Positions 1 through 12,151 of a DNA stretch of 12,151 nt are shown here, piece after piece (the first letter of the stretch is position 1; each line of letters opens with the position of its first letter). The notes under the pieces are model-generated. The model did not search any database. It worked only from the letters and a program-made list of their open reading frames with translations, and was not told the DNA's origin. The position numbers and the translations under genes were made by a program. This DNA is from a virus, in the IMG/VR virus record IMGVR_UViG_3300029343_000059, positions 1-12,151 of that record; one strand, written 5' to 3'.

Positions 1-1387
1 GAATGACACGCACCATGTTGAATCCATAACTCTCGCACTCCTCACGCCAATACGTTGAAGACCAGCTGTCATAACCTATCCATGCAATCTGTATCCCATG
101 CACCTTGACCATTTCAACAAACCATGCTGTGACATCACTATAATTGATTGTATTGCCTTCACACAAACGCAACAAACCACGTTCACGCCATTTGTCATAT
201 GGGATTTTTTCTTCCTTCACACGTTCTTCAAATCGGTCAGCTGGAAGCCAATACATTTGCGTCACATGCCTTTGCATTGTGTTTTTGTCAATCATCAGCA
301 ATGTTGCACATGTCAAATCAGTTGTGCGGGATAAATCAGCACCGCCAATTGCATACACGCCCGCAAAATCATCAATGTTGAATGTGTCTTCATTGTTCAG
401 CGTGTCGAATGTTAGCCACGCACTTGACGTTGTTGACCGTATGTCAAAATCTTTGCACAATATTCCGTTCAAGTCCTTTGGATTCTGTTTTGCTCTTTCT
501 ACCTTTTCACGAATGTCAGACAATTTTTTGATTGTTCCAAGTGCTGGATTGGCTTTTGTCCATGCGTTCGGATTCTTCCATTCTTCTTTGCTGTCAAGTT
601 CGTATATTATTGGCAAAAAGCGTTCATCATGTATGATTCCGTCAACAATGTCACATGCGTATTTGTATAAGTCATCAAAAATTGATTCCCTTTTCGTTCC
701 AGCCGTGCTAATCATCAGCAACAACGGCTGTTGCCTTGCACTTTGTGATTGCTTGAGTACTTCATACAAACCACGGTCACATTCGTGCAATTCATCAATG
801 ACAATACAATGACCGTTCAATCCGTCCATGGTGTTATATTTTGCCCCTAATGGTTCAAACTTTGACATGGTAGCTGCGAAATATAAATCCGTTTTGCGCT
901 TCTTCAAATGCTTCCGCAAGTCGGGTGATTGTTTCACCATGTTCAAGCATTCATTGAAAATTATCTTGCTTTGTGCAAGTTTGGTGCTTGCACTGTATAC
1001 TTCCGCACCAGCTTCATTGTCAGCAATTAGCATGTATAACGCTATACCAGCAAGCATTGTTGATTTTCCATTTTTACGGGCAACCATGAACAAAGATTCA
1101 TTGTATTTTCGCAAGCCTGTTTCTTTATCTACAAAACCAAATAATGCTTGAATGTATGCTTTTTGAAACAATTCCAGCTTCACGGGTTTTCCTGCCCATT
1201 TGCCTTTGCTATGCTTGCAAAACCTTTCAATGAATTCAATCGGTTTTGTTCCCTTCTTTTCATCAAACACATATTGATTCGGGTGTTCAATGTCATGCAC
1301 TAATTTTTTATAAATCTTTCGGACACGTGTGCTTGTTACAATTTCACCAGCTTCAATTTTCTTTTGATATTCAATAACATAATTCAT
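1..1387 (-). CDS. terL: Terminase large subunit (TerL), 5' portion including the start codon. The gene continues across the circular join into 11782-12151. Total about 545 aa.
   Basis: Hand translation of the minus strand from ATG at 1387-1385 gives MNYVIEYQKKIEAGEIV...SLFMVARKNGKSTMLAGIALYML... This contains a Walker A (GKST). It also contains ...GHCIVIDELHECD (Walker B-like), ...VYAIGGADLSRTTDLT and ...IAWIGYDSWSS (RNaseH-like nuclease acidic motifs). The frame is continuous with track ORF 11782..12144, because positions 1-119 duplicate 12033-12151. The TerS stop (1392-1390) lies 2 nt upstream of this ATG. Confidence 0.9.
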   Translation of the reverse strand, partial: MNYVIEYQKKIEAGEIVTSTRVRKIYKKLVHDIEHPNQYVFDEKKGTKPIEFIERFCKHSKGKWAGKPVKLELFQKAYIQALFGFVDKETGLRKYNESLFMVARKNGKSTMLAGIALYMLIADNEAGAEVYSASTKLAQSKIIFNECLNMVKQSPDLRKHLKKRKTDLYFAATMSKFEPLGAKYNTMDGLNGHCIVIDELHECDRGLYEVLKQSQSARQQPLLLMISTAGTKRESIFDDLYKYACDIVDGIIHDERFLPIIYELDSKEEWKNPNAWTKANPALGTIKKLSDIREKVERAKQNPKDLNGILCKDFDIRSTTSSAWLTFDTLNNEDTFNIDDFAGVYAIGGADLSRTTDLTCATLLMIDKNTMQRHVTQMYWLPADRFEERVKEEKIPYDKWRERGLLRLCEGNTINYSDVTAWFVEMVKVHGIQIAWIGYDSWSSTYWREECESYGFNMVRVI

Positions 1388-1389
1388 TG

Positions 1390-1740
1390 CTACATATTGT
1401 CGTTTATAAAGTCCATTAACGGGTCATTTTCAATTGGTTGCGTGTCCTTTGGTAGTAAATCGCATAACTGTTTGTATAATGCGGAATACTGTTTGATTGT
1501 TGTGTTGTAGCTTTTCAATGCTGGTGATTCACGGAAAAAATCTTGCTTTCCTTGCTGGAAGTGTTCAATTGTTCCGTTTTCTTTCACATTTTCTTTCAGT
1601 TCAGCAAGGGTTGCTGTCATGAATGCAAGTTCATCAGCTATGTTTGAAGCTATTGCCTTTTTGTTGTCGGGTACCAGCTTCACAATTTGATTCAATTTTC
1701 TTTTTTCTGATTTTGTAATTTTATCTTTGTCAATTGTCAT
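1390..1740 (-). CDS. terS: Terminase small subunit (TerS), P27-like family, about 116 aa.
   Basis: MTIDKDKITKSEKRKLNQIVKLVPDNKKAIASNIADELAFMTATLAELKENVKENGTIEHFQQGKQDFFRESPALKSYNTTIKQYSALYKQLCDLLPK... Small helical protein placed between an HNH gene and TerL, the canonical cos-phage arrangement. Strong SD AAAGGTGA lies 5 nt upstream of ATG 1740-1738. The track's longer start at 1797 lacks an SD. The family call is from memory of P27-type TerS sequences. Confidence 0.65.
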   Translation of the reverse strand: MTIDKDKITKSEKRKLNQIVKLVPDNKKAIASNIADELAFMTATLAELKENVKENGTIEHFQQGKQDFFRESPALKSYNTTIKQYSALYKQLCDLLPKDTQPIENDPLMDFINDNM

Positions 1741-1797
1741 GCTATCACCTTTCAATCTTTCAATATTTATTGTAAACATGTATACAAGTATACCCAC

Positions 1798-2124
1798 CGT
1801 TCATGCAAAAACCTTCACGGGGGTTTTCTAATGTGGGGCGTTTGATTACTTTCCGCCTGCCCTGCCTTTTGGGTTGGGGCGGTATTAATTGCCATAGCTG
1901 TGCACTATAAATACCCAGCTAAACCGGATTGGGAGATATAAGGAAGAAATAGAAGAATTAATTTAATTTTGCTGTAAAGCGTCCGTGTGTATGCTTGCCT
2001 ATGAACTCACCGACGGCTGAAAGGACCGCATAGACTGCTCACCAGTCATAAGCAATCTATTAAAGTTCGGTTTGCATGAACACTTTCGCAAGTACCTATA
2101 GTGCACGGCTAAGGCAATTAATTG
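1798..2124. other. Candidate cos / packaging-recognition region: the HNH-TerS intergenic region, locally GC-rich with G/C tracts.
   Basis: This is the only sizeable gap inside the head operon and lies exactly between HNH and TerS, where HK97-like cos phages carry cos. G-runs on the plus strand: cacgggggtttt (1816-1827), tgtggggcgttt (1832-1843), ccgcctgccctgccttttgggttggggcgg (1853-1882). Confidence 0.4.
1884..2122. repeat. Inverted repeat of 26 bp (24/26 match) with arms at 1884-1909 and 2097-2122, enclosing 187 bp.
   Basis: Left arm attaattgccatagctgtgcactata. Right arm tatagtgcacggctaaggcaattaat, which is the reverse complement of the left arm with 2 mismatches. The right arm ends 2 nt from the HNH stop codon (2125-2127). 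Confidence 0.8.
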
Positions 2125-2415
2125 TTATAGCTTTACTAAATTGCCTTGATTGTCAAATATCAATCCCGCTTCTGTTACAGGTTTTTCCATATGCTCGTGT
2201 TGGTGACATGTCGCACACAATGCTTCGAGATTGTCCCATGAAAGCGTTATGTTTGGGTTGTTGATATTTGTCGGATTAATGTAGGTTTTGTGATGCACAA
2301 TGACGGCTGGCTTTCCACATCTCTCGCATACATAGTGTTTGCTTTGCATATATGCTTTTTGTGTGTCTCGCCATGCTTTTGACGCATAGAAACGTTTTGC
2401 GTATTCTTTCGCCAC
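2125..2415 (-). CDS. HNH endonuclease (zinc-finger HNH, terminase-associated).
   Basis: MAKEYAKRFYASKAWRDTQKAYMQSKHYVCERCGKPAVIVHHKTYINPTNINNPNITLSWDNLEALCATCHQHEH... The CxxC...HH...N...CxxCH architecture is classic HNH. GTG start at 2415 with SD GGGGAG upstream. Confidence 0.9.
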   Translation of the reverse strand: MAKEYAKRFYASKAWRDTQKAYMQSKHYVCERCGKPAVIVHHKTYINPTNINNPNITLSWDNLEALCATCHQHEHMEKPVTEAGLIFDNQGNLVKL

Positions 2416-2437
2416 TGTGCACCACTCCCCTTTTCAT

Positions 2438-2704
2438 TCAAATTTTTTTTATTGATATTGTCTTCAATAAGCTGTCAACGCTTCTTTGCATTCTTTCCGT
2501 GTCCACTTGCGTTGGGTCATACCATAAAGACAACAGAAATTTTTGTGCGGTTTCACACAAGGGACTTACGACTTGTTCAGCTTCAACAACGCCCGTTGTC
2601 AACTCTATGTATTCAACGGACGCTGTCAGCAATCCTTCAATGATTGGGTCATTGTCGGTGTTGTCTAATCTCAGCCATTCCCTTGCGGTTTCAAGCGTCA
2701 ACAT
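2438..2704 (-). CDS. gp6-like head-tail connector (DNA-packaging / head completion) protein.
   Basis: MLTLETAREWLRLDNTDNDPIIEGLLTASVEYIELTTGVVEAE... matches the conserved N-terminal pattern of gp6/SPP1 gp15-like connectors (L.L.E.K..LRID.D..D.LI..LI.AA..YI...TG). Its start overlaps the MCP stop (TAATG). Family recalled from memory. Confidence 0.7.
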   Translation of the reverse strand: MLTLETAREWLRLDNTDNDPIIEGLLTASVEYIELTTGVVEAEQVVSPLCETAQKFLLSLWYDPTQVDTERMQRSVDSLLKTISIKKI

Positions 2705-3930
2705 TATCCAGCTTTAACCGCAATTTTCACGAATGCTTCGGACACGATTGGTTTGCAATCCGCAATTGCTAGTCCTCTATAATCAACCTTGCCACTACGG
2801 AATGAAGATTGTGTTGAAGATTCAACAGCAATTCCAGCTGGAAGATTGTATCCCATATAATCAAAATTGCCGTAATAAATAACACCGTCAGCAATGTTGT
2901 CATCAATAACAACTTCATGTCCAAGAATGCTTCCAATGCTTTCTTTCTGTACATCAGCAAGGAAAATTGGACGCTTGTTTGTATCAACAATGTTATATGC
3001 ACCGTTGTATAATGTTGCACTATTCATTGCCCAAACTGCTTTCTTGTGGTATCCACGTTTAAGCATTGCCATTGCACTTGGGAAATTAGCATATGCAAGT
3101 GCATTTGTTTCAACAAGGTTTGTTCCAGCTGTCCAAGTAATTGTTTCAAGTCCGCTTCCCTGTCCTACGCCTGTACCATTTACAATACCGTCCGCAAGGC
3201 ATTCAAGAACACAATTGTTTAATTCGTCAACAAGATATGCTTCAAATGCGTCAATGCTCATGGTTTTAATTTTTGCACTTAGTGAGAAAATTTTGATAAT
3301 TTCATACCCATTGAATGCAACTTCAACAATCTGTGGAACGTCCGCTGCTGCGTCTTTTCCTTCAGTGTTCCAAGTTGCCTTGCTGGAAGGTGTACCAACG
3401 GGAATTGAAATATTGGAAGGCATTGCGAATGCTCTACAACGTGCAAGCAATCCACCTTCTTTTCTTGCCTTTGCAATAACTTCATTCAATGTTGCTGTTG
3501 GAAGCACAACAGCTGTGTTTGAACTCGTTGTGTAATTGTCCGCACGCTTTTCAATTTCCATTGCACGGTTCATTGCACGTGTTTCCGCACCGTTTAATTC
3601 TCTACCAAGTAAAGACTTGAAAAATGCACTTCTATATTCTTTTGACGCATACACATCACCCTTGACAGCTTCAACACTATCATTTGCCATGTTTAGACCT
3701 GTGATTGGATTCATGCTTCTTGCTTCACCTGTTTCACCTGTTGCATTTTCAGTTGCGTTTGCTTTTGCTTCGTTTAATCCTGTCAATTCAATGTTCATTG
3801 CTGTGATGTCAATGTCGGGGTCTGTTTCAATAATTGCTTTCATTTCTGTTGCACGCTTTTCCATTTCCGCAATGCTCTTTGTTCTGTAAAAATTAAATGC
3901 TTCCGCTACTGTTTTAAAGTTCATTTTCAT
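2704..3930 (-). CDS. Major capsid protein, HK97 fold, with an N-terminal delta/scaffolding region of about 100 aa.
   Basis: 408 aa, immediately after the prohead protease, with ATGA start/stop overlap at 3927-3930. The N-terminus is charged and coiled-coil-like (MKMNFKTVAEAFNFYRTKSIAEMEKRATEMKAIIETD...). No separate scaffold gene is present. SD AAGAAGG upstream. Confidence 0.85.
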   Translation of the reverse strand: MKMNFKTVAEAFNFYRTKSIAEMEKRATEMKAIIETDPDIDITAMNIELTGLNEAKANATENATGETGEARSMNPITGLNMANDSVEAVKGDVYASKEYRSAFFKSLLGRELNGAETRAMNRAMEIEKRADNYTTSSNTAVVLPTATLNEVIAKARKEGGLLARCRAFAMPSNISIPVGTPSSKATWNTEGKDAAADVPQIVEVAFNGYEIIKIFSLSAKIKTMSIDAFEAYLVDELNNCVLECLADGIVNGTGVGQGSGLETITWTAGTNLVETNALAYANFPSAMAMLKRGYHKKAVWAMNSATLYNGAYNIVDTNKRPIFLADVQKESIGSILGHEVVIDDNIADGVIYYGNFDYMGYNLPAGIAVESSTQSSFRSGKVDYRGLAIADCKPIVSEAFVKIAVKAG

Positions 3931-4577
3931 TTACCTTCTTTCATTAAAATTTTGTTGCACATGATTTTTAGATTCTGTTTTGCTCTGTATCTCTTTTTTT
4001 CAGCTTCAATTGCATTTCGTGATTCTACCGAAACACTTGTGCTTTCATACGCTGGAAACGGAACAATTGACACTTCATAGACCTTTGCAATTTTTGTGAT
4101 TGTTCTTGTGTTGGTCTTTGCGTCATAACTGTCCCCACCTTCGGGAATAGTGAATGCGAATGACATGCCCGTCAAATCGCCACGCTTTATTGCTTCATAT
4201 ACGCTTTTCCCGTCTTCGGTGTTTGGCAATTCCGCTGTCATTTCCAATGCCTTGTCTGTGACCGTGAATTGCATTGTTTTCGGTACTTTTGCAAGTGGAA
4301 CACGATTTGTTGAATGGTCGTATAACAAACGACTGTCCGACATGTCCGCACCTTCCAATGCACCTTTTTTGATAATTTCGATATAGTCCCCGTTTGGGTC
4401 ATGTATCGTTGTGGGAACATCAAAAACAATTGGCGTTCCCTTTATGTGTAAAGCTGTTTCATTTAATTCAGCTTGCACATTACTTGACCTTATTTCTTTC
4501 ATACTGTGACCGCCTTTCTTGCTGGTTTTCTTCATTGTGTCTTTTTTCGGTGCAATCACACTTTTCACATGGGTCAA
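3927..4577 (-). CDS. Prohead maturation protease, HK97 / S78 family.
   Basis: ...GTPIVFDVPTTIHDPNGDYIEIIKKGALEG...KVYEVSIVPFPAYESTSV... resembles HK97-type prohead serine proteases and sits in the conserved portal-protease-MCP order. The start at 4577 is TTG (the track shows M) with SD GGGTG. Internal ATG starts (MKKTSKK, MKEIRSS) are possible alternatives. Confidence 0.8.
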   Translation of the reverse strand: MTHVKSVIAPKKDTMKKTSKKGGHSMKEIRSSNVQAELNETALHIKGTPIVFDVPTTIHDPNGDYIEIIKKGALEGADMSDSRLLYDHSTNRVPLAKVPKTMQFTVTDKALEMTAELPNTEDGKSVYEAIKRGDLTGMSFAFTIPEGGDSYDAKTNTRTITKIAKVYEVSIVPFPAYESTSVSVESRNAIEAEKKRYRAKQNLKIMCNKILMKEGK

Positions 4578-4612
4578 GGTTGCACCCGCACAATGGACAT
4601 GTATAAAAATAA

Positions 4613-5818
4613 TTATGCCGTTTGTCCTTCATTTGTATTTCCTGTATCTGTTGCACCAGCGTTTGCAAGCTGGTATGCGTTCGCAATAGCTTTGTCAATG
4701 TAATTTAATGACACAATGCGTTTGTCACCGTCTTCAACGGCTGGAAGGTTTAATATTTCCATGCATTGATTGATTGTCAACAATCCCATTGGTGCAAGTT
4801 CCTTGATTATGTTCAATTTTGTTGCGTTGCTGGAATAAACCAAACGCCCACTATCAAACACAATTGAATTTCCAAATGCCCTTTCACGGTCATTGAAAAT
4901 CTTTCTTGTAAATTCCAATGACAATTGCAATGATAATGGTTCAATAACTGATTCATAAAAACTTGACCATTCGTCTTCGGTGTAGCTACTTGTCACAATT
5001 TTTTCTGTGATTCCAAGATATGAATAAATCTTGCCTTGCACCGTTTTCAGCTGTTCAGCGTCAATTGTTTGTGGTTTTGCTTCAATTGGTACATATTCCA
5101 TTTTGCTGTCAGTTGCCACAACACCACCGTTGTTTGAAATGTCCAAATATTCTTCCACAAACTTTTTTGAAGACTCTTTCAATTTGTCTTCATTCATGAT
5201 TTGTGTGTATTTTAAGATTCCACGAATGTTTGCATTGCTTTTGATTCCGTTCACAATGCCTTCGTCCATTGTTTGTGCAAGTGTCAATGCTGGTGCAACA
5301 GCGTCATTGCTGTCACCCAATAATTCATCACTATTGAAAAATCTTGAAATGTGTATCAAATCACGATATGCAAACACAAATGTTTTTCCATTACGGAAAC
5401 GGAATTCAACAAACAAATTTCCCTGTTCATCAGCAATGAAATTTGCTTGCGTTGCTGTGATTGGATATAAAGCAATTATGTTCCCGCTTCGGTCACGTTC
5501 TATGTATGCAAATGAATTGTTGTGAATGTAATAATGTGTGACCAACTTATACAAAAAGTTATATGCGGTCATGTATGGATTCGGTTGCACTTGCAACATT
5601 CTATTCAATCGGCTGTCCGTGAAGTCCTTTGTGTTTCCGTTTGACTTCACAACATGCATTCCTTTCAGCTTTCCAGCATTCCTTGCAATTGCGTCAATGC
5701 CTTGTCTATATAATGCATTGGTGTATGCATTCCCGTTCCAAGCTGTGAAGGGTGCAATGTCTGTGATAATTTTGCCCTTTGTCACTTCTTTTCTTCTTAA
5801 TCTGTCAAATAGACCCAT
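4613..5818 (-). CDS. Portal protein, HK97 family.
   Basis: 401 aa, first gene of the head operon, followed by protease and MCP. SD AAGGTG lies 6 nt upstream of ATG 5818-5816. Size and position are typical of HK97-type portals. Confidence 0.85.
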   Translation of the reverse strand: MGLFDRLRRKEVTKGKIITDIAPFTAWNGNAYTNALYRQGIDAIARNAGKLKGMHVVKSNGNTKDFTDSRLNRMLQVQPNPYMTAYNFLYKLVTHYYIHNNSFAYIERDRSGNIIALYPITATQANFIADEQGNLFVEFRFRNGKTFVFAYRDLIHISRFFNSDELLGDSNDAVAPALTLAQTMDEGIVNGIKSNANIRGILKYTQIMNEDKLKESSKKFVEEYLDISNNGGVVATDSKMEYVPIEAKPQTIDAEQLKTVQGKIYSYLGITEKIVTSSYTEDEWSSFYESVIEPLSLQLSLEFTRKIFNDRERAFGNSIVFDSGRLVYSSNATKLNIIKELAPMGLLTINQCMEILNLPAVEDGDKRIVSLNYIDKAIANAYQLANAGATDTGNTNEGQTA

Positions 5819-5829
5819 TCAATGCACCT

Positions 5830-6120
5830 TGCTTTCTTTCATTCTTTTTTGTTGTATTAAAATATTGCTTTATTGTTTACAGTAATTATAACACTTTTGT
5901 ATGCATTCAACAATCATATTTTTCTTTATTGCTTTAATGTTTACAATAATACAAAATAGCATTCCAGCTTTATTTCATAACATTCAATTGCATTCGTTTT
6001 TGGTCTTCCTGTTGTTATTCTCTATATAGTCTATTCTTGTATCTATATGTATTCCCTTTCTGTGGATATAAAGAATATAAAATATATATAAATATACGGA
6101 AAAAACAAAAAGTGCAAAAA
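5830..6120. other. AT-rich tract, a candidate DNA-unwinding element of the replication origin. It contains a DnaA-box-like 9-mer tgtggatat (6061-6069, 8/9 to TGTGGATAA).
   Basis: Long A/T runs (tatatataaatatacggaaaaaacaaaaagtgcaaaaaaatc) with no credible ORF on either strand. It lies immediately beside the tandem iterons. Confidence 0.45.
5885..5913 (-). promoter_or_regulatory. Candidate sigma70-type promoter for the head/packaging operon, with an extended -10.
   Basis: The minus strand reads TGTTATAAT (-10 TATAAT at 5890-5885 preceded by TG). The -35 is weak (TTGTTG, 17-nt spacing). It lies about 67 nt upstream of the portal ATG. Confidence 0.4.
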
Positions 6121-6164
6121 AATCAGTATTTATCGTGGTTTTCAGCACTTTGAAGCGAAAAAAT

Positions 6165-6230
6165 CATACCCACTTTGGCATGGTTTCATACCCACTTTGG
6201 CATGGTTTCATACCCACTTTGGCATGGTTT
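6165..6230. repeat. Three perfect tandem 22-bp direct repeats (iterons): catacccactttggcatggttt.
   Basis: Copies at 6165-6186, 6187-6208 and 6209-6230 are identical. They lie in the 1-kb intergenic region downstream of the prim-pol/rep genes, adjacent to the AT-rich tract. They are a candidate origin or centromere. Confidence 0.9.
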
Positions 6231-6741
6231 CGGCTTTTTGGTGGTCTAAGTTTCGTAAAACCATAAATACCTGTAGACTAGTCAAAAACGGCATTTTTTC
6301 CCGTGTTTATGCGGTAATTCGCATTTTTCCATTCATCACTTTTACATGGTTGCGTAATCACTTTTTTCCGGTTTCTAAATACAGACTTTTGAAGCAAAAA
6401 AAACAGTATTGCCATATTGGGCGTTTTTAGCCATTTTGAGCGTGTTTTGTGTGTTGGACGGTAAATTGTTCATGAAATGTGTTTGCGTGGCTCTACGGGG
6501 CAAATAAACACGTTCACGGGCATTCCAGCATGACTGTTTGATTATTCATGACAACATTTTGCAATCATGGTTCAATTTTCATGTTGTTTGGTGTCAATAT
6601 AAATCACAAATGCCCCTGTGACGCTCTCACGTGGCTTGTATTGGCTTTTGAATGTCTTAATGTACAATTTACCCATAAAGACAATAAAACCGTTCTACGG
6701 GCATTCTATGGCGTTTTACGGCATATTGTAAAAATAGGCAT

Positions 6742-6773
6742 AAAAAAAGCACACGCCAATTTTGCATGTGCTT
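6742..6773 (-). terminator. Candidate intrinsic terminator of the par/rep operon.
   Basis: On the minus-strand transcript: stem AAGCACA / loop of 13 nt / TGTGCTT, followed by UUUUUUU (plus-strand A7 at 6742-6748). Lies 30 nt after the stop of the 107-aa gene. Confidence 0.45.
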
Positions 6774-6804
6774 CATGTATTCTTCATGGTATATTTTATT
6801 GTTT

Positions 6805-7128
6805 CTAAATATTAAACTCTTTTCCAAATGCTACAGAAGCAATCACACGAAAGTCATGCTCCGCCCCATCAACAAAGAAGTCCCCATTTTCAAAACTGAA
6901 TAAAACACCATCAACATCAATTATTTTTCCGTCTTCATCATGCTTCATAATCAAGTATGTATCGTCTTTCTTGTCTTCAAAATGCTTATAAAAATCTTCG
7001 ATTTCTTCCCAGCTGCTAAAATCTTTAAATACTTTTTTCACTTCCACCTTGTTAACCGTGTTATTTGATTCGTCAACGATAACATAAGAATAAATGTCTA
7101 GATTGTTTGAATTTGTTTTTTTACTCAT
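6805..7128 (-). CDS. Hypothetical protein, 107 aa, acidic, last gene of the rep operon.
   Basis: MSKKTNSNNLDIYSYVIVDESNNTVNKVEVKKVFKDFSSWEEIEDFYKHFEDKKDD... SD AAGAAGG upstream of ATG 7128. Co-oriented with and 5 nt downstream of prim-pol. No family recognised. Confidence 0.55.
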   Translation of the reverse strand: MSKKTNSNNLDIYSYVIVDESNNTVNKVEVKKVFKDFSSWEEIEDFYKHFEDKKDDTYLIMKHDEDGKIIDVDGVLFSFENGDFFVDGAEHDFRVIASVAFGKEFNI

Positions 7129-7133
7129 TTTAT

Positions 7134-8078
7134 TTACCTTCTTTCTATGCTTTGAATGTATTTTGATAATGTTGGAATGTCGGAATACAATGCAACAGCT
7201 TTTCCAATGGTCATGCTTGCATAATCTTCACGCAACCATTTGTCACGGAACAATGCGGAATGCTTTATCATTTCAAAAATCATTTGCGGGTCATTATCGG
7301 TGTAAAATGCAAGATAATTGCACAATGCAATGTCCGCTTCGCTTTGTGATGTGTAATTGCTTGTGTTTCCTTCCCACAATGCTTTGATTTTGCCCCCGTT
7401 TTCACCTTTCAGCATAATTTCCAGCAATGTTTGCTGTTTTGTGGTCATTGGTTCAATGCTCTTTGTATCAACAAACAATGCTTGTGTCTTTTGTTCCAGC
7501 TTTTCAATGTATCGTTCATAAACTTTTCGCACTTGATACACGTGCGGTTTGATTTCTTTGCGGTCTTGATACACATTTCCCGTGATTGCAAAATATCTTC
7601 CACCCGTATACATTTCAATTTCGGGTTCTTTCTTTTTTCCGTCAACATTTCGTGTGTATCTGTGAAGCCTTGCAACGTCCAAATCAAATGCATTGCGGTT
7701 TCTATTCAATAACATGTCCCCTTTTACAATGATATGGAAGCCTTTTTTGCTTTGGCTGTATTCGGTGTAACTGTCCAGCATTTCAATAATTTCTTTTGCT
7801 TCGGTCAACACATTGCCTTTGCTGTCAATTACATTGTCAAGGTCAATTGCAATATAACCATGATTGAAGACAAAACCAGCACCAATGTATTTGCATTTTT
7901 TTATTGCTTGCATACAATCTTCAAATGTTGCCCATGTACTGGAAGCGTCTACCTTTGCGGGCATGTCTGTTTTTGCATTGTATGGTTGTTTCTTCGGTGC
8001 GTTCTTTGCAACCTTTCCCCAAACAACCCATTGTGCAAGGTCTTTCAATTCCTGTGGAATGTCTTTGTATTTCTTCAT
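7134..8078 (-). CDS. Bifunctional primase-polymerase (prim-pol N-terminal domain plus PriCT-like C-terminal domain). No helicase domain.
   Basis: Prim-pol motifs: GYIAIDLD (DxD), KKGFHIIV (G-x-H) and IEMYTGGRYFAITGN. The C-terminal ...SQSEADIALCNYLAFYTDNDPQMIFEMIKHSALFRDKW resembles the PriCT-type primase C-terminal domain. No Walker A/B anywhere in the protein. Its ATG overlaps the stop of the upstream 393-aa gene (ATGA). Confidence 0.75.
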   Translation of the reverse strand: MKKYKDIPQELKDLAQWVVWGKVAKNAPKKQPYNAKTDMPAKVDASSTWATFEDCMQAIKKCKYIGAGFVFNHGYIAIDLDNVIDSKGNVLTEAKEIIEMLDSYTEYSQSKKGFHIIVKGDMLLNRNRNAFDLDVARLHRYTRNVDGKKKEPEIEMYTGGRYFAITGNVYQDRKEIKPHVYQVRKVYERYIEKLEQKTQALFVDTKSIEPMTTKQQTLLEIMLKGENGGKIKALWEGNTSNYTSQSEADIALCNYLAFYTDNDPQMIFEMIKHSALFRDKWLREDYASMTIGKAVALYSDIPTLSKYIQSIERR

Positions 8079-9256
8079 TGTGTCTTTCCATCTCTTTTCA
8101 CAAAAATGTCAAAACCGTCCGTGCCTTCGGGTTTCCATTCAAACGATTCAATCATGTCATTTTCCATGAGATACACCAATTGTTTTTGCACGCTTTTCAA
8201 TGTGCGTGATTTCTTTTTTGCATAGCTTTGTTTTCTTTTATAATTTGCGGGTACAATGTCCGCATATTCCAGCAATTTATCAAATGAAATGTGATTGATT
8301 CTATTTGTATAAACTTTTTTGCCCTTCAATGCTCTGATTCTATTGAACAAATACACCTTGATTTTTCTATTTTCCACCGTGTCACGCATTGGTCCAAGCA
8401 AGAAATTTTGTTTTTCATCGTCAATGGTTGCAATCTGTCCAATAGTAAATGCATAATTCAATAATATTGGCGTTCCCCTAAATTCATAATAGTCAGAAAA
8501 TGTTCCATTGGCATTGCGTCCATACCAGCCCGCAACATCAACAAGATTTCCTTTTGTCTGTATTTTTCCAAGTTCGGGATACATGTGCAAAACTTCTTTC
8601 ACATCAAGTTCAATGAAGACTTTTGCCATTTTTCGTATGCTTTCGTCTTGTGCTTTCAATTGTTCGGGTTTTGGGTTTGCGTTCGGGGCTTGCATGATGA
8701 TTCTATACAATTGCACTGGTGTCAATTCTTTTTGACCCATTCGCAACGCATTCCCTATTCCCATTAGTACGGTAAAATCATACCCATTCAATTGAATATT
8801 TTCTTTTTGTGCTGTTTCCTGTATCTGTCTTTTGATTATATTCACGGCACGTGCTTTTCTGTCCGTGTTGAATTCTTTGCCACTTGTCAATGCTGGAAGC
8901 CATTTGTCAAAGGGTAAATCTTTATTGAACACCGTTTTGTTTGCATTGTCATACGGCACAATCAATGTTCCGTATTTTCCACGATTTGTTGCAATTTGTT
9001 TTGGTTTATTGATTTCTTGAAACGTTGCATTGCTTTGCAATATTTCGTCAAGTTCCTGTTGTATGATATCGTCATTTTTTGCTGTCATATCGGACGCATA
9101 AAAACATCCTTCATCATCTTCATCATTTGGAATGTCAATGTATCCTTTATCAATTGCGGTTGCTATGGTTTCAATTAGAATATTTCTTTTTTCGTTTGAG
9201 TCTTCAATGTTTGCAGTTTTGCTTGCTATGTATCTCAATATTTCTTCACCGTACAT
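8075..9256 (-). CDS. Hypothetical protein, 393 aa, translationally coupled to prim-pol. Possibly a replication initiator or origin-binding partner (inference).
   Basis: MYGEEILRYIASKTANIEDSNEKRNILIETIATAIDKGYIDIPNDEDDEG... Strong SD GGAAGGAAAGGG upstream. No nucleotide-binding motif and no family recognised from sequence alone. Confidence 0.7.
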   Translation of the reverse strand: MYGEEILRYIASKTANIEDSNEKRNILIETIATAIDKGYIDIPNDEDDEGCFYASDMTAKNDDIIQQELDEILQSNATFQEINKPKQIATNRGKYGTLIVPYDNANKTVFNKDLPFDKWLPALTSGKEFNTDRKARAVNIIKRQIQETAQKENIQLNGYDFTVLMGIGNALRMGQKELTPVQLYRIIMQAPNANPKPEQLKAQDESIRKMAKVFIELDVKEVLHMYPELGKIQTKGNLVDVAGWYGRNANGTFSDYYEFRGTPILLNYAFTIGQIATIDDEKQNFLLGPMRDTVENRKIKVYLFNRIRALKGKKVYTNRINHISFDKLLEYADIVPANYKRKQSYAKKKSRTLKSVQKQLVYLMENDMIESFEWKPEGTDGFDIFVKRDGKTQ

Positions 9257-9444
9257 TTCTGTCCCTTTCCTTCCAAGTATTCTTCAATTTGCTTTTCTGT
9301 GAAATACCAAACATACCCAATGCGGTTTCCTTTCAATGTCCCATCATCAACACGCCTTTTCACGGTCTTTGTTGAGCATTTGAACATGTTGGCAACTTCT
9401 TCAATGTCATAAATCTTCACATTATCAAGTTTAATCATGTTCAA
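9235..9444 (-). CDS. Small HTH DNA-binding protein of the excisionase/AlpA (HTH_17-like) family.
   Basis: ...KIYDIEEVANMFKCSTKTVKRRVDDGTLKGNRIGYVWYFTEKQIEEYLEG fits the Xis/AlpA-type HTH pattern (E.A..L.VS..TI.R....G.LP..KIG..WRF....I.E..). The track start at 9444 is TTG. ATG at 9438 (MIKLDNV...), 2 nt after the ParG stop, is the more likely start. Confidence 0.7.
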   Translation of the reverse strand: MNMIKLDNVKIYDIEEVANMFKCSTKTVKRRVDDGTLKGNRIGYVWYFTEKQIEEYLEGKGQKCTVKKY

Positions 9445-9716
9445 TCTTCCTTTCTTTTCGCAATGTCCTTGTCTTTCAAAAAGTCGGTCAAAATCATTTC
9501 AAGTGCTTCTTTCAAGGTCATGTTTTCATAGAATGCATAACCCTTTAATTGTTCAACAATTTCTTTATCAATGCGGAATGACACAACAGCTGTTGTTCCT
9601 TTTTCCGTTTTCTTGCGTCCACGCTTCTTTGTTTCCGTGCTTGCTGGTGTTTCATTGCTGGATATTAAAGAATCCGCAACGCTGTTTCCATTCATGTTGT
9701 ATTTTTTATTTGCCAT
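9441..9716 (-). CDS. ParG-like ribbon-helix-helix partition/regulatory protein: basic N-terminal tail plus RHH.
   Basis: MANKKYNMNGNSVADSLISSNETPASTETKKRGRKKTEKGTTAVVSFRIDKEIVEQLKGYAFYENMTLKEALEMILTDFLK. A disordered K/R-rich tail is followed by a beta-alpha-alpha (RHH) pattern. It overlaps the 3' end of ParA by 11 nt. This is the type-Ib arrangement (ParF/ParG-like). Confidence 0.55.
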   Translation of the reverse strand: MANKKYNMNGNSVADSLISSNETPASTETKKRGRKKTEKGTTAVVSFRIDKEIVEQLKGYAFYENMTLKEALEMILTDFLKDKDIAKRKED

Positions 9717-10479
9717 TTTGTTTTGTCTCCCTTCCTAAAATTTCAGACACAATGCCGTTGTAATCAATTGCACCGTTGCTTTTTGGGTCATATTCAAATA
9801 TGTCAACACCGTTGATTGGTGCTTCCGCAATAGCAACATTGTTTCGTATCTTTGTATTGAATACTTTTTGCGGGAATGCTTCTTCCAGCTTTGCAACAAT
9901 GTCTTTATGTAAATTTTTGCGGTTGTCATACATGGTTACAATAACGCCTGTAACGGCAATTGTTTTGTTTGTATATTTCTTTATCGTTTCAATTGTCTTT
10001 TTCAGTTCTACAATTCCCGACATTGCAAGGTATTCCGCTTGTGTTGGGATATAAACTTCATTGCATGCGGTCAATGCGTTGATTGTCAGCAATCCAAGTG
10101 ACGGTGTATTGTCTATCAAAATATAATCATATTCATTCATGATTGGTTGCAATGCTTCTTTCAAAACATATTCACGCCCCGTTTGGTCACTGATATTCTT
10201 TTCCGCAATGGTCAATCTTTGGTCTGTTGCTATCAAATCACAATTTGAAAGTTTGTTGATTGCTTCTTTTGCTTCACATTCACCCGTCATTACATCAAAC
10301 ATTGTGTATTTCAATGATTTTGCGTCAATTCCAAGTGAAATGGTCATACTTCCTTGCGGGTCAAAATCAACCAACAAAACACGCTTCCTGTTTCGTGCTA
10401 GTCCAACACCAATGTTGATTGTGCTTGTGGTTTTTCCAACACCGCCTTTTTGATTCACTATTGCAATAATTTTTGCCAT
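9706..10479 (-). CDS. parA: ParA/Soj-family partition ATPase (small, type Ib).
   Basis: MAKIIAIVNQKGGVGKTTSTINIGVGLAR...VLLVDFDPQGSMT... carries the deviant Walker A KGGVGKTT and a DxD motif. 257 aa, no N-terminal HTH. Confidence 0.9.
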   Translation of the reverse strand: MAKIIAIVNQKGGVGKTTSTINIGVGLARNRKRVLLVDFDPQGSMTISLGIDAKSLKYTMFDVMTGECEAKEAINKLSNCDLIATDQRLTIAEKNISDQTGREYVLKEALQPIMNEYDYILIDNTPSLGLLTINALTACNEVYIPTQAEYLAMSGIVELKKTIETIKKYTNKTIAVTGVIVTMYDNRKNLHKDIVAKLEEAFPQKVFNTKIRNNVAIAEAPINGVDIFEYDPKSNGAIDYNGIVSEILGRETKQNGK

Positions 10480-10512
10480 GTTCTTTTTTTCCTTTCCTAG
10501 CCTTTCATGTCC

Positions 10513-10809
10513 TTAAGAACATAAATTCTCTTTAATATCTTTACCCGTTAAATCTTTATATTTATTTTCTATTCTTTCTAGTTTCTCTTTTCTATCATTT
10601 GCCCACTGTTCAGCAAAATTGTGAAGTTCTTCAACATCTTCTATTGATTCATCTTCATTTAAACGACCTAGTGCCATATCAAGCGACATATAAGCAATTA
10701 GTTCCTCTGTTTTGTCAACTGTGTCTATGGCTTTATCATAATCCTTTTGATATGTTTCATATTCTCTAATTAATTTTTGAGTTTCCTTTGTTGTTTCCAT
10801 TTCTTTCAC
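10513..10809 (-). CDS. Hypothetical, strongly acidic, predicted all-helical protein of 98 aa.
   Basis: MKEMETTKETQKLIREYETYQKDYDKAIDTVDKTEELIAYMSLDMALGRLNEDESIEDVEELHNFAEQWANDRKEKLERIENKYKDL. About 30 D/E against about 18 K/R. Its ATG overlaps the stop of the upstream 68-aa gene. Confidence 0.5.
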   Translation of the reverse strand: MKEMETTKETQKLIREYETYQKDYDKAIDTVDKTEELIAYMSLDMALGRLNEDESIEDVEELHNFAEQWANDRKEKLERIENKYKDLTGKDIKENLCS

Positions 10810-11012
10810 CTTCTTTCTTCAATGTGTCCGTCCTTGCATACCTTCAAGAACAATTTTCCTGTTTCGTCTTCCAACGTGAATTCATTCGGGTGTGCTGGAC
10901 TATCTTGCACAATCACAATGTTGTTTTCGGGCATGAAGTTTTCTTCAATCCATGCTTCAATCTTTTTGTGGTAGTATTCCTCAATAGTTTTTGCACCTTT
11001 GATTGCTTTCAT
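10806..11012 (-). CDS. Hypothetical protein, 68 aa, first gene of the par/rep operon.
   Basis: MKAIKGAKTIEEYYHKKIEAWIEENFMPENNIVIVQDSPAHPNEFTLEDETGKLFLKVCKDGHIEERR. SD AGGTGG lies 9 nt upstream of ATG 11012. The promoter is about 70 nt upstream. Confidence 0.5.
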   Translation of the reverse strand: MKAIKGAKTIEEYYHKKIEAWIEENFMPENNIVIVQDSPAHPNEFTLEDETGKLFLKVCKDGHIEERR

Positions 11013-11079
11013 GTAAACATTCCACCTTTCTTTTTTTATTTCTTCATTGCATGTTTGCTTGTATGTTCTTGCATGTCCA

Positions 11080-11108
11080 TATTATAGACAATAACAAAAT
11101 AAATTGCA
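11080..11108 (-). promoter_or_regulatory. Candidate sigma70 promoter of the par/rep operon: -35 TTGCAA, 17-nt spacer, -10 TATAAT.
   Basis: The minus strand reads TTGCAA(11108-11103)-tttattttgttattgtc-TATAAT(11085-11080). The -10 is perfect and the -35 is 4/6. It lies about 70 nt upstream of the first gene of the operon. Confidence 0.55.
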
Positions 11109-11177
11109 ATAGGTTTCTGAAAATGTTGCTTTTTTTCTTTTTTGTTTACATGTTTACGCTAATAAATTAAACACAAT

Positions 11178-11224
11178 AAAAAAACACCCTTCATAAATGC
11201 GTTCTACGGCACTTTTTAAGGGTG
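11178..11224 (-). terminator. Candidate intrinsic terminator after the head-closure gene, ending the head/packaging operon.
   Basis: Minus-strand transcript: CACCCUU (stem), a loop of about 26 nt, AAGGGUG (stem), then UUUUUUU. The loop is unusually long, which lowers confidence. Confidence 0.35.
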
Positions 11225-11341
11225 GTTAATATAAATTATCATTTGAACACAAAAACGCCAAATAAGGGCATTTCTGTGCGTTCTGCGTGGTATTACAATT
11301 AATCTAGGTTGTATGGTAGTACATTTTCCATTTTTTCATGG

Positions 11342-11764
11342 TTATCTGAGTAAATATTTAATTTCAGTATAATCTGGATTTATTGGTAACTTACTAGGGT
11401 CATAAGGAATCATAGTGTTTATTTTATCCGTCGTAAGTCTGCAATATAGCACCAAATCCCTTTTATATCCTTCGTACGGGTCAACTCTGGTTACTTGGTA
11501 TAAAATCCCGTCGTAATATACATAATAGTCATTAGCGTAATTTGATAAGATTGCGTCTGTATAGTTGATTCTAAATAGACACTCTTCCTTTATTGCTGTT
11601 GTATTGCTTGCATAAAACAAACTTGCCGAAAGCTGTTTAAAATATGCCCAGACGTTATCCTGTGGGTGAATTGGCATATAAGCCTTTAGGTCGAAACCGT
11701 CTTCGTCCGTTGTCTCGATATACATGTATATCTTTATTTTTTTATCTTTCAATTTTGTTGACAT
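11342..11764 (-). CDS. Head closure / head-tail joining protein (SPP1 gp16-like family).
   Basis: The C-terminal half ...ECLFRINYTDAILSNYANDYYVYYDGILYQVTRVDPYEGYKRDLVLYCRL matches the conserved pattern of phage head-closure proteins (..h.I.hRY......ph.Y.gp.a.I..V......p.E.pL.C.E). Its start lies 17 nt after the TerL stop, with SD AGGTGG. Confidence 0.6.
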   Translation of the reverse strand: MSTKLKDKKIKIYMYIETTDEDGFDLKAYMPIHPQDNVWAYFKQLSASLFYASNTTAIKEECLFRINYTDAILSNYANDYYVYYDGILYQVTRVDPYEGYKRDLVLYCRLTTDKINTMIPYDPSKLPINPDYTEIKYLLR

Positions 11765-11781
11765 GTAAACATTCCACCTTT

Positions 11782-12151
11782 CTATAATGCATTTATGTAT
11801 TCATTATATCTTTCGTGTAAAACAACATATGCGTCCAGCAATGACGCAAAACCGTCAATGCGTTGTTTTGCCCCGTTTGCCTTTGTTGGGACAATATTGC
11901 CGTTGCGGTCTTCAACACATTTCACATTTGTCATGCACCATTTCAAAATCGGGTTGTTGTTATAGTTTATTTTTTTAGCTTCCAAATCAGCACCCAAATG
12001 TTGCATTGGCAATGACAATGTCTTTGCACCTTGAATGACACGCACCATGTTGAATCCATAACTCTCGCACTCCTCACGCCAATACGTTGAAGACCAGCTG
12101 TCATAACCTATCCATGCAATCTGTATCCCATGCACCTTGACCATTTCAACA
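11782..12151 (-). CDS. terL: Terminase large subunit, 3' (C-terminal nuclease) portion. Same gene as 1..1387, across the circular join.
   Basis: Track ORF MVKVHGIQIAWIGYDSWSSTYWREECESYGFNMVRV...HERYNEYINAL. The M shown is internal, since there is no stop upstream before the window edge. In-frame with the minus-strand ORF at 1-1387 (codon phase checked: 112 and 1387 are both 1 mod 3). Confidence 0.9.
   Translation of the reverse strand, partial: VEMVKVHGIQIAWIGYDSWSSTYWREECESYGFNMVRVIQGAKTLSLPMQHLGADLEAKKINYNNNPILKWCMTNVKCVEDRNGNIVPTKANGAKQRIDGFASLLDAYVVLHERYNEYINAL
12033..12151. repeat. 119-nt exact duplicate of positions 1-119. This is a wrap-around of a circular contig (period 12,032 bp).
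   Basis: Both copies read gaatgacacgcaccatgttgaatccataactctcgcactcctcacgccaatacgttgaagaccagctgtcataacc...ccatttcaaca. The duplicate lies inside the TerL coding sequence, so it is not a regulatory repeat. Confidence 0.9.

Follow-up and report, generated by a model that had tools for sequence, protein, structure and literature searches.

The locus considered here raises the question of what occupies the non-coding gap between the gene for an HNH endonuclease (hnh) and the gene for the small terminase subunit (terS) of a phage-like element, and what is to be made of the near-perfect inverted repeat that it holds. The DNA analyzed, hereafter called the window, is the whole of a 12,151-nt stretch, positions 1 to 12,151 of the IMG/VR record IMGVR_UViG_3300029343_000059. 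A sequence-only reading of the window had placed a candidate cohesive-end packaging site (cos) in the gap and had offered four explanations for the repeat, namely cos architecture, a long-range RNA stem insulating HNH from TerS translation, an insertion resembling a miniature inverted-repeat transposable element (MITE), or an invertible segment. The present analysis makes it probable that the gap is composed of two independent elements, a cos site (1788–1883) and an adjoining structured RNA domain of 239 nt (2122–1884), and, with about the same probability, that the inverted repeat is the closing helix (P1) of this RNA, which would be co-transcribed with hnh. The cos part is supported as an ordinary site of the HNH-dependent type with nothing unusual about it.

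The gap extends from 2124 down to the TerS start codon, ATG 1740. It had earlier been given as 327 bp, with a limit on the TerS side (GTG 1797) that is only a mechanical ORF start and was replaced by this ATG, which is preceded by a ribosome-binding site (RBS). No ORF of more than 35 aa was found in the gap and indels are not in threes, on which grounds a coding region was rejected. Counting Watson-Crick pairs only, the best inverted repeat in these 384 nt scored 20, compared to 8.2 ± 1.1 (maximum 14) in 300 dinucleotide-preserving shuffles. The repeat is therefore real; a repeat finder delimited its arms as 1884–1914 and 2092–2122, each 31 nt long and separated by 177 nt, with a complementarity of 87%, and the 26-nt arms first described (24/26 matching) are the outer part of these. 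The gene-strand 5′ arm has its boundary at 2122, leaving the 2 nt to the HNH stop codon (2125–2127) that had been noted before.

Around 250 related loci were collected from IMG/VR, GTDB genomes and metagenomes using capsid, HNH and TerL as anchors, and synteny around hnh–terS was conserved among them. The distance from HNH to TerS was found to be bimodal, being mostly approximately 72–140 nt (20–143 nt overall, with a few overlapping) and in a minority of loci 266–645 nt. The short gap was present in 50 distinct complete cases in one set and in 43/55 in another, including prophages of Priestia, Cytobacillus, Clostridium, Staphylococcus and Macrococcus. The long gap is equivalent to the short gap with an optional insertion of 120–350 nt (1884–2122 in the window), which ends directly before a conserved C-run. 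Approximately 40 distinct copies of this insertion were identified and fall into several sequence types: type A, to which the window belongs (21 variants), type B (loci L004, L008, L028, L007 and L044), type C (L015, L016, L116, L117 and others) and type D (L035 and L057), together with single examples in L006, L147, L153, L003 and L242. The arm sequences are unrelated between types (e.g. ATTAATTGYYATAGC..., AAGGCTATAAGGTTAAGCGGCCGG..., CGTTGTGCAAGGCGTTCCGGG... and CTGTAGAACTCAGTAGCCGG...), with a closing stem at the same place in each; relative to the hnh stop, the first base of the best stem lies between −5 and +8 nt in every copy except L104 (+28). This stem is 20–34 bp long in most types and 11–13 bp in L003 and L153, and the z-scores of Watson-Crick-only stems were 4–14 in 8 of 16 representatives.

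To describe the fold, an alignment of 16 type-A sequences was analyzed with RNAalifold and by pair counting. RNAalifold returned 59 pairs, 18 of them with compensatory changes, and 95.7% of the cells of the alignment were paired, a value that dropped to 26–39% when the 3′ partner was slid by one to three columns. Changes on both sides were observed in 19 of the 59 pairs, compared to 10.8 ± 1.9 in shuffles (0/500 reached the observed number); the sequences are related, so these shuffle statistics overstate independence, yet the signal is still spread over several helices, with compensatory changes in six pairs of P1, in 6 of the 12 pairs of the P3 hairpin and also in P2 and P5. On the gene strand, 742 cells of the type-A structure are Watson-Crick and 150 are G·U, whereas just 10 cells would be G·U on the opposite strand. 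The Alifold energy was −54.5 kcal/mol for the gene strand against −25.5 kcal/mol for its complement, and the gene strand was the more stably folded in 39 of 40 copies, by a mean of 14 kcal/mol. For the window itself, folding of the minus-strand region, which had been proposed as a check, gave a z-score of −5.2, compared to −3.3 for the plus strand. The type-C stem contains 5–7 G·U pairs, with only 21/30 Watson-Crick pairs between its arms, and is not significant as a DNA repeat. The strand-biased G·U pairs, the asymmetry in folding and the type-C stem therefore argue for an RNA rather than a double-stranded DNA signal. Compensatory base-pair changes and strand-specific G·U pairs are the generic marks of a structured RNA, and both were found here.

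The helices and the other features of the gap are listed in the table below. CU-rich tracts such as that inside P5 were found in all types, often with UCUUAUUCA or CCUCUCUC, and the tract is enlarged by tandem duplication in L010, L101 and L102. Many unpaired nucleotides are invariant in type A, which suggests a specific binding partner.

Features of the hnh–terS gap of the window and the genes flanking it (paired segments are joined by "with"; for cos the predicted zone is given)
Feature	Position	Strand	Remarks
HNH endonuclease gene	2125–2415	-	96 aa; Pfam PF01844, E = 1.1e-8
Segment "a" (last hnh codons, stop, first bases of 5′ arm)	2117–2132	-	direct repeat of the 3′-arm end, 1884–1899
P1 closing helix	2091–2121 with 1885–1915 (arms 2091–2122 and 1884–1915)	-	31 bp; 5′ arm begins 2 nt past HNH stop
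P1 tandem G·U	2096/1910 and 2095/1911	-	in 16/16 and 15/16 type-A copies
5′ domain enclosing P3 and P4, with conserved GAGUUCAUAGGCAAGCAUA (1990–2008)	1990–2078	-	RNAalifold, pair counts, invariant columns
P2	2074–2078 with 1990–1994; 2069–2070 with 1998–1999	-	
P3 hairpin	2048–2058 with 2032–2042 (feature 2030–2059)	-	strongest covariation; 6/12 pairs changed on both sides
P4 hairpin	2025–2028 with 2014–2017 (feature 2012–2029)	-	
P5 helix	1971–1974 with 1916–1919; 1965–1967 with 1923–1925 (feature 1916–1974)	-	
Single-stranded CU-rich tract, inside P5	1931–1959	-	
C-run block ACCGCCCCAACCC...GGCGG, start of conserved cos region	1853–1883	-	CCCCCC column in 25 diverse loci; same layout in phage iA2
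Predicted cos cleavage zone	1833–1843	.	homology to contig starts and ends of relatives
Small hairpin AAAACC...GGTTTTT and T-run, just inside left end	1805–1827	-	conserved block
G-run GAACGGTGGGTATAC	1788–1802	-	counterpart of the family's GGGGAGGGGTAAAC
terS, with RBS AAAGGTGA and ATG at 1740	1390–1752	-	

The cos site lies between hnh (2415–2125) and TerS (1740–1390), upstream of TerL, on the minus strand. Its region recurs in every relative, including those with gaps of 72–140 nt and the prophages of cultured Bacillota. On the gene strand the shared layout runs from the end of hnh (GNLIx) through NCCCCCC, approximately 30 nt, GACCG and 9–11 nt to YTTYN AAAACCYCTCC, followed by GTTTTY...RTAT, GGGGAGGGGTAAAC, approximately 25 nt, the RBS and terS. 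As blocks, the C-run, AAAACCYCTCC, GTTTT and GGGGAGGGGTAAAC can be aligned across 25 diverse loci, prophages of cultured hosts among them, and the window matches the layout (ACCGCCCCAACCC...AAGTAATCAAACGCCCCACATTAGAAAACCCCCGTGAAGGTTTTTGCATGAACGGTGGGTATAC); the G/C-rich block to which attention had been drawn from the window alone is its form of a C-run that every relative has kept. In IMG/VR, eight independent contigs (L185, L190, L211, L236, L247, L249, L257 and L258) start exactly 6 nt before AAAACC/TTTTCC. One 13.3-kb contig ends with ...GGGAGACCGTGGGAAA and starts with GTTTTCTAAACC, so that its two ends abut at that point, and two other contigs finish at ...GGAGAC, 9–11 nt upstream of the contig-start base when aligned to related loci. 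These contig ends suggest a staggered cut at cos of approximately 9–11 nt. By homology to them, the packaged left end of the window is predicted to start at plus-strand coordinate 1833 and to read CATTAGAAAACC... on the minus strand (CATTAG corresponding to 1828–1833), with a stagger tentatively put at approximately 9 nt (about 1834–1842).

The same arrangement is seen in the linear record, as deposited, of the isolated Lactobacillus phage iA2, in which HNH reaches to the last base and the terL-adjacent ORF begins at nt 58, with C6 approximately 55 nt before the right end and G7 approximately 25 nt after the left end. The conserved block, the contig termini of relatives at one homologous base and this layout uphold the earlier placing of cos in the HNH–TerS gap. 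The packaged map drawn from it also follows from the location of cos, with TerS, TerL and head completion at the left end, portal, capsid and HNH at the right end and the par, rep and ori genes in the middle. In the HNH-dependent cos systems of HK97, the Staphylococcus phages phi12 and phiSLT, SaPIbov5, phage-inducible chromosomal islands that form capsids (cf-PICIs) and phage iA2, cos is likewise found between hnh and terS with HNH last at the right end, and terS is preceded by the same succession of C-run, cleavage site and G-run, the difference being that the nicks in the window are predicted only. HNH-dependent cos packaging and the cf-PICI gene order have been described previously (10.1101/2022.09.08.507074).

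With cos so placed, the element lies within approximately 50 bp of the predicted right end, on the cosQ side, and would therefore be the last DNA to be packaged. This position is what speaks for a DNA-level accessory of cos, such as a cosQ-like termination signal, a scaffold for terminase or a bending protein, or a cruciform at the last-packaged end. The strand asymmetry described above is strong and would not be sensed by double-stranded DNA, the type-C arms match at only 21/30 Watson-Crick positions, and arms 120–350 bp apart at variable spacing are improbable as a cruciform or as the site of a protein dimer. In addition, relatives with the same cos block and HNH, TerS and TerL do not have the element. 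Such an accessory is accordingly regarded as very unlikely. The proposal that the repeat itself represents cos architecture or cos symmetry was not sustained either, since most relatives share the cos block without the repeat, one close relative retains cos but no longer has the repeat, and the stem of one type exists only when G·U pairs are counted.

An invertible, phase-variable segment is scarcely credible at this locus. The repeats have the length expected of an inverton and surround approximately 180 bp, but all 21 type-A variants are colinear and two further assemblies, 100% identical to the window, are in the same orientation; no recombinase gene is encoded in the 12-kb element, and the mismatches in the arms are fixed and asymmetric.

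The history of the insertion was examined with an HNH neighbor-joining tree, which is a rough one as the protein is short. This tree placed types A, B and C with L006 and L003 in one clade and dispersed types D, F and G over loci that do not have the element. Segment "a" (e.g. AAGCTATAGCAAGTAAT) is repeated directly as segment "c" (CAGCTATGGCAATTAC), the end of the 3′ arm. L114 (about 2270–2440) lies inside the type-A clade and is without the element; its hnh ends in ...AAGCTATGGCAATTACATCCCCCC, a hybrid of the 14–16-nt repeats "a" and "c". In basal relatives GNLIx leads directly to NCCCCCC and the repeat sequence is not present. Given this hybrid and these basal sites, the direct repeat is considered to be part of the element and L114 to be a deletion scar, and a target-site duplication was rejected for the same reason. 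The HNH of L114 is extended by a 15-codon tail through the cos C-run. Segment "a" and the start of the 5′ arm can also form a 10-bp hairpin with a GUAA/GUGA loop (p ≤ 0.007) in many type-A copies and in L008 and L028. This hairpin would form in place of the outer part of P1 and is significant in most type-A copies and some type-B copies; in the window it is weak (z = −1.45), in several types it is absent, and it is treated as a subfamily feature.

These observations bear on whether the element could be a selfish palindromic insertion, a relic at the 3′ end of hnh that persists by descent without function. Correia/NEMIS elements of Neisseria are MITEs of which the hairpins are targeted by RNase III in mRNAs, and they occur in hundreds of dispersed copies with TA duplications. 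The element of the window resembles them in its size (approximately 100–250 nt), in being bounded by inverted repeats and in its proposed co-transcription with a neighboring gene, and differs in being found at a single locus, diverging vertically and having G·U-rich arms and covarying internal helices. Its appearance as an insertion relative to the basal gap of 72–140 nt, its terminal inverted repeats, the direct repeats at both its ends with the solo-repeat scar in L114, and its patchy presence outside the main clade would all suit such a relic. However, the direct repeats belong to the element, and basal relatives are without the sequence. The element is also single-copy and context-specific: a pattern scan combined with nhmmer found the type-A core motif TCATAGGCAAGYRTAYA in 30 stretches of IMG/VR, with the element carried by eight hnh–terS contigs only, on which basis a dispersed MITE was rejected. 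The arms differ by G·U-compatible transitions conserved across copies, as in the tandem G·U pairs of P1, unlike the arm identity that a transposase needs, and double changes preserve pairing, that of the interior helices included. A relic of this kind is thus judged improbable, and the MITE-like insertion put forward earlier failed the mobility search suggested with it, which gave neither a target-site duplication nor copies at unrelated loci in IMG/VR.

What the proposed RNA would do was considered from its position and its fold. The likeliest role is that of an element for processing (of the RNase III type) or stability, or else of a stable RNA excised from the late transcript. The RNA would be transcribed as a 3′ extension of the hnh cistron, together with the head-gene/hnh operon, and P1 would enclose the three-helix 5′ domain and the helix-bounded CU-rich single-stranded tract. 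If RNase III cut within P1, the head-gene/hnh mRNA would be parted from the cos/terminase leader, and this processing may leave a protective stem stabilizing the 3′ end of the upstream mRNA and/or release the inner part of approximately 180 nt as a stable RNA. Near-perfect RNA duplexes where a cistron ends are typically cut by RNase III, as known from phage polycistronic mRNAs (the intercistronic sites of T7 and sib of lambda) and from the excised intervening sequences of ribosomal RNA. The predicted P1 duplex of 26–34 bp in all major types is in keeping with the substrate length for this enzyme (at least approximately 20 bp). As at such sites, a long near-perfect duplex of distant segments at the end of a cistron closes an insert, and processing or removal need not disturb the flanking genes. 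The known sites differ in having a simple loop, the RNA of the window having a conserved multi-helix interior and a cleavage that is predicted only.

Type B is of interest with regard to the end of the transcript. Between the element and the C-run, L004, L008, L028, L044, L242 and L003 have a second domain, in type B a hairpin of 75–110 nt with a conserved 3′ arm (CUACGGGGCUUUU) followed by a U-run. This resembles an intrinsic terminator in extended form, or else another structured RNA, and the hairpin with its U-run is consistent with a 3′-UTR position of the element near the 3′ end of the transcript.

A trans-acting role is a serious rival to RNase III-type processing in view of the invariant unpaired nucleotides of type A, although it is held to be unlikely. 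Here, a stable non-coding RNA cut from the late transcript would bind a host or helper protein or RNA (6S-like, or as a decoy) or oligomerize, and would serve the conflict between satellite and helper. The multi-helix interior, with a three-way-junction module in type B, and the anti-Shine-Dalgarno-like CCUCC/CUCUCUC loops and tracts would fit such a role, as would an optional hairpin whose palindromic AAGUACAA loop recurs in the tRNA regions of unrelated phages. On the other side, the interiors of the types have no core in common, the element is dispensable, as in L114, no Rfam family such as 6S matches, and a target was not identified. Specific complementarity between the CU-rich tract and the start of terS was not seen: when tried at eight loci as a cis-acting anti-Shine-Dalgarno sequence for terS, the tract showed no complementarity beyond base composition (z of −0.83 to +1.28, 7/8 within ±0.9), and was rejected as such. 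Of the four explanations first offered for the repeat, the long-range RNA stem is the one favored by the data, here as the closure of a multi-helix RNA and without the insulation of TerS translation that had been attached to it.

The optional hairpin is absent from the window; its loop of 9 nt (NAAGUACAA) contains a GUAC palindrome with A's on either side. It is carried by L012, L014, L019 and L104 (type A), by L004, L028 and L044 (type B) and also by L272, L291, L289 and L292. In unrelated IMG/VR phages this same hairpin, YUGG-GAAGUACAA-CCRG, was observed within other small stem-closed structures, approximately 30–370 nt from genes for tRNA-Lys or tRNA-Met. No Rfam family matches this hairpin, which could be a kissing-loop or protein-binding module.

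Other structured RNAs of phage-like elements were also compared. ROOL and GOLLD are large or ornate phage-associated RNAs of unknown function (PMC12286853), and the pRNA gene of phi29 also adjoins the genome end and the packaging genes. The element of the window is unlike these in that no sequence or structure match was found with Rfam, in its length of 120–350 nt and in a terminase system unrelated to that of phi29; any link to the packaging motor is hypothetical.

Several points weigh against the proposed division of the gap and the processing of its RNA part. Aside from the relatedness of the type-A sequences already mentioned, the stem boundaries of the insertion copies were picked with a score favoring G·U pairs, and a k-mer search found nothing longer than 7 nt common to all types, the interiors being unalignable between types. 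The element is absent from most relatives, and L114 has lost it with cos and terS retained. No canonical terminator was found after the element in the window. Cleavage by RNase III and an effect on expression, should there be one, are inferred. With regard to cos, its position in the window is derived from homology to the contig termini of relatives, and four type-A contig ends are non-coincident, being spread over approximately 35 nt.

A number of further candidates were considered. A covariance-model search of the window against Rfam 15, which covers group I introns, 6S, tmRNA, ROOL/GOLLD and ribozymes among others, gave no match at E ≤ 1, and for 12 relatives gave one match, to a eukaryotic lncRNA family (E = 0.63, below the gathering score), which was taken as spurious. 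A group I intron or other self-splicing element, suggested by the ability of the 5′ arm to pair with the end of hnh, was rejected on the lack of an Rfam match, the small size of the 120–130-nt copies and the lack of a core common to the types. ARAGORN detected no tRNA or tmRNA in the window, and no close matches were obtained when collections of phages and plasmids were searched by megablast. A replication origin in the gap was rejected because three perfect tandem 22-bp iterons (TCATACCCACTTTGGCATGGTT) lie far from it at 6164–6231, in non-coding sequence downstream of the rep/prim-pol gene, and represent the probable origin. A description of the structured RNA was not found in the literature, and its motif is absent from those supplements of the Fremin 2021 catalog that were searched; there are large catalogs of anonymous candidate viral RNAs (PMC10690425, PMC8040213) in which the hnh-adjacent RNA may figure, so that an earlier anonymous listing is possible.

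A 119-bp terminal direct repeat (1–119 and 12033–12151) shows the contig to be circular, with a size of approximately 12,032 bp. All genes are on the minus strand, in the order ParA, an Arc/ribbon-helix-helix (RHH) protein, an AlpA/excisionase-like helix-turn-helix (HTH) protein, a 393-aa protein without a family match and a primase-polymerase (prim-pol), then portal, S78 protease, HK97-type capsid, gp6-type connector, HNH and the gap, and finally TerS, TerL (split over the contig junction) and a head-completion protein. The genes for heads and packaging are complete, and no tail, lysis or integrase genes were found among the genes of the element. It looks like a cf-PICI-like satellite with plasmid-type maintenance (ParA, Arc/RHH, the AlpA-like HTH and prim-pol), and the order portal–protease–capsid...hnh–terS–terL is that of one group of capsid-forming PICIs of Firmicutes (10.1101/2022.09.08.507074). 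Its relatives are mainly contigs of 11–15 kb, several of them from human-gut assemblies, and HNH identity is 48–91% across approximately 150 of them. TerS is only weakly recognizable (Pfam Terminase_4 at E = 0.004, below its cut-off; a PHROG TerS family at 2e-4; PHROG 1066, of unknown function, at 2e-35). The assignment made earlier is therefore weaker than claimed, and is supported by position and by synteny with TerL. Public gene callers use an upstream start for this gene (129 aa), whereas the RBS favors ATG 1740.

It should also be noted that a 24-nt direct repeat (92% identical, 64 nt apart) lies directly upstream of the portal gene at 5862–5950 and a 30-nt repeat (80%) in the gap preceding the head-completion gene at 11027–11155; both may be regulator binding sites or late promoters. 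In some relatives an extra ORF was found between hnh, or the RNA element, and cos, such as that for a protein of approximately 140 aa in L006 (about 8470–8900), and gaps of 750–1030 nt occur in L048, L058, L059, L230 and L235–L246. The hnh–cos junction appears to be a hot spot for insertion. The motif AGCGG, the Chi sequence of B. subtilis, was found 17 times on the gene strand in type-B and related elements (L008, L007, L004, L028, L006 and L116), with its complement CCGCT once, compared to approximately four expected; there are none in type A, the window included. Reasoning from how Chi is read, an enzyme of the AddAB type that entered at the right cos end would meet the motif in this orientation, or the bias may merely reflect the G·U-rich stems.

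The cos part of the gap is routine, and fixes the ends and the gene map of a widespread family of gut elements of approximately 12 kb. The remainder is apparently a covariation-supported structured RNA family, not yet described to judge from Rfam 15 and the literature that could be searched, and it stands at a fixed and unusual place, namely within the final 290 bp of the packaged genome and joined to the stop codon of the packaging HNH gene, in capsid-forming, satellite-like elements. A more speculative suggestion, which is thought rather doubtful, is that the RNA following hnh works as a non-coding RNA specific to capsid-forming, tail-stealing satellites, released from the late transcript by cleavage of P1 and acting on packaging or on the helper phage. 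If true, it might for example bind the terminase/HNH complex or the portal at the cos-proximal end, or sequester a helper or host factor, and would be an RNA component of a terminase-type cos packaging system or of an interference system. As some natural variants carry the element and others do not, one of them being a clean deletion scar, a role in late expression, in packaging or in satellite–helper conflict is directly testable.

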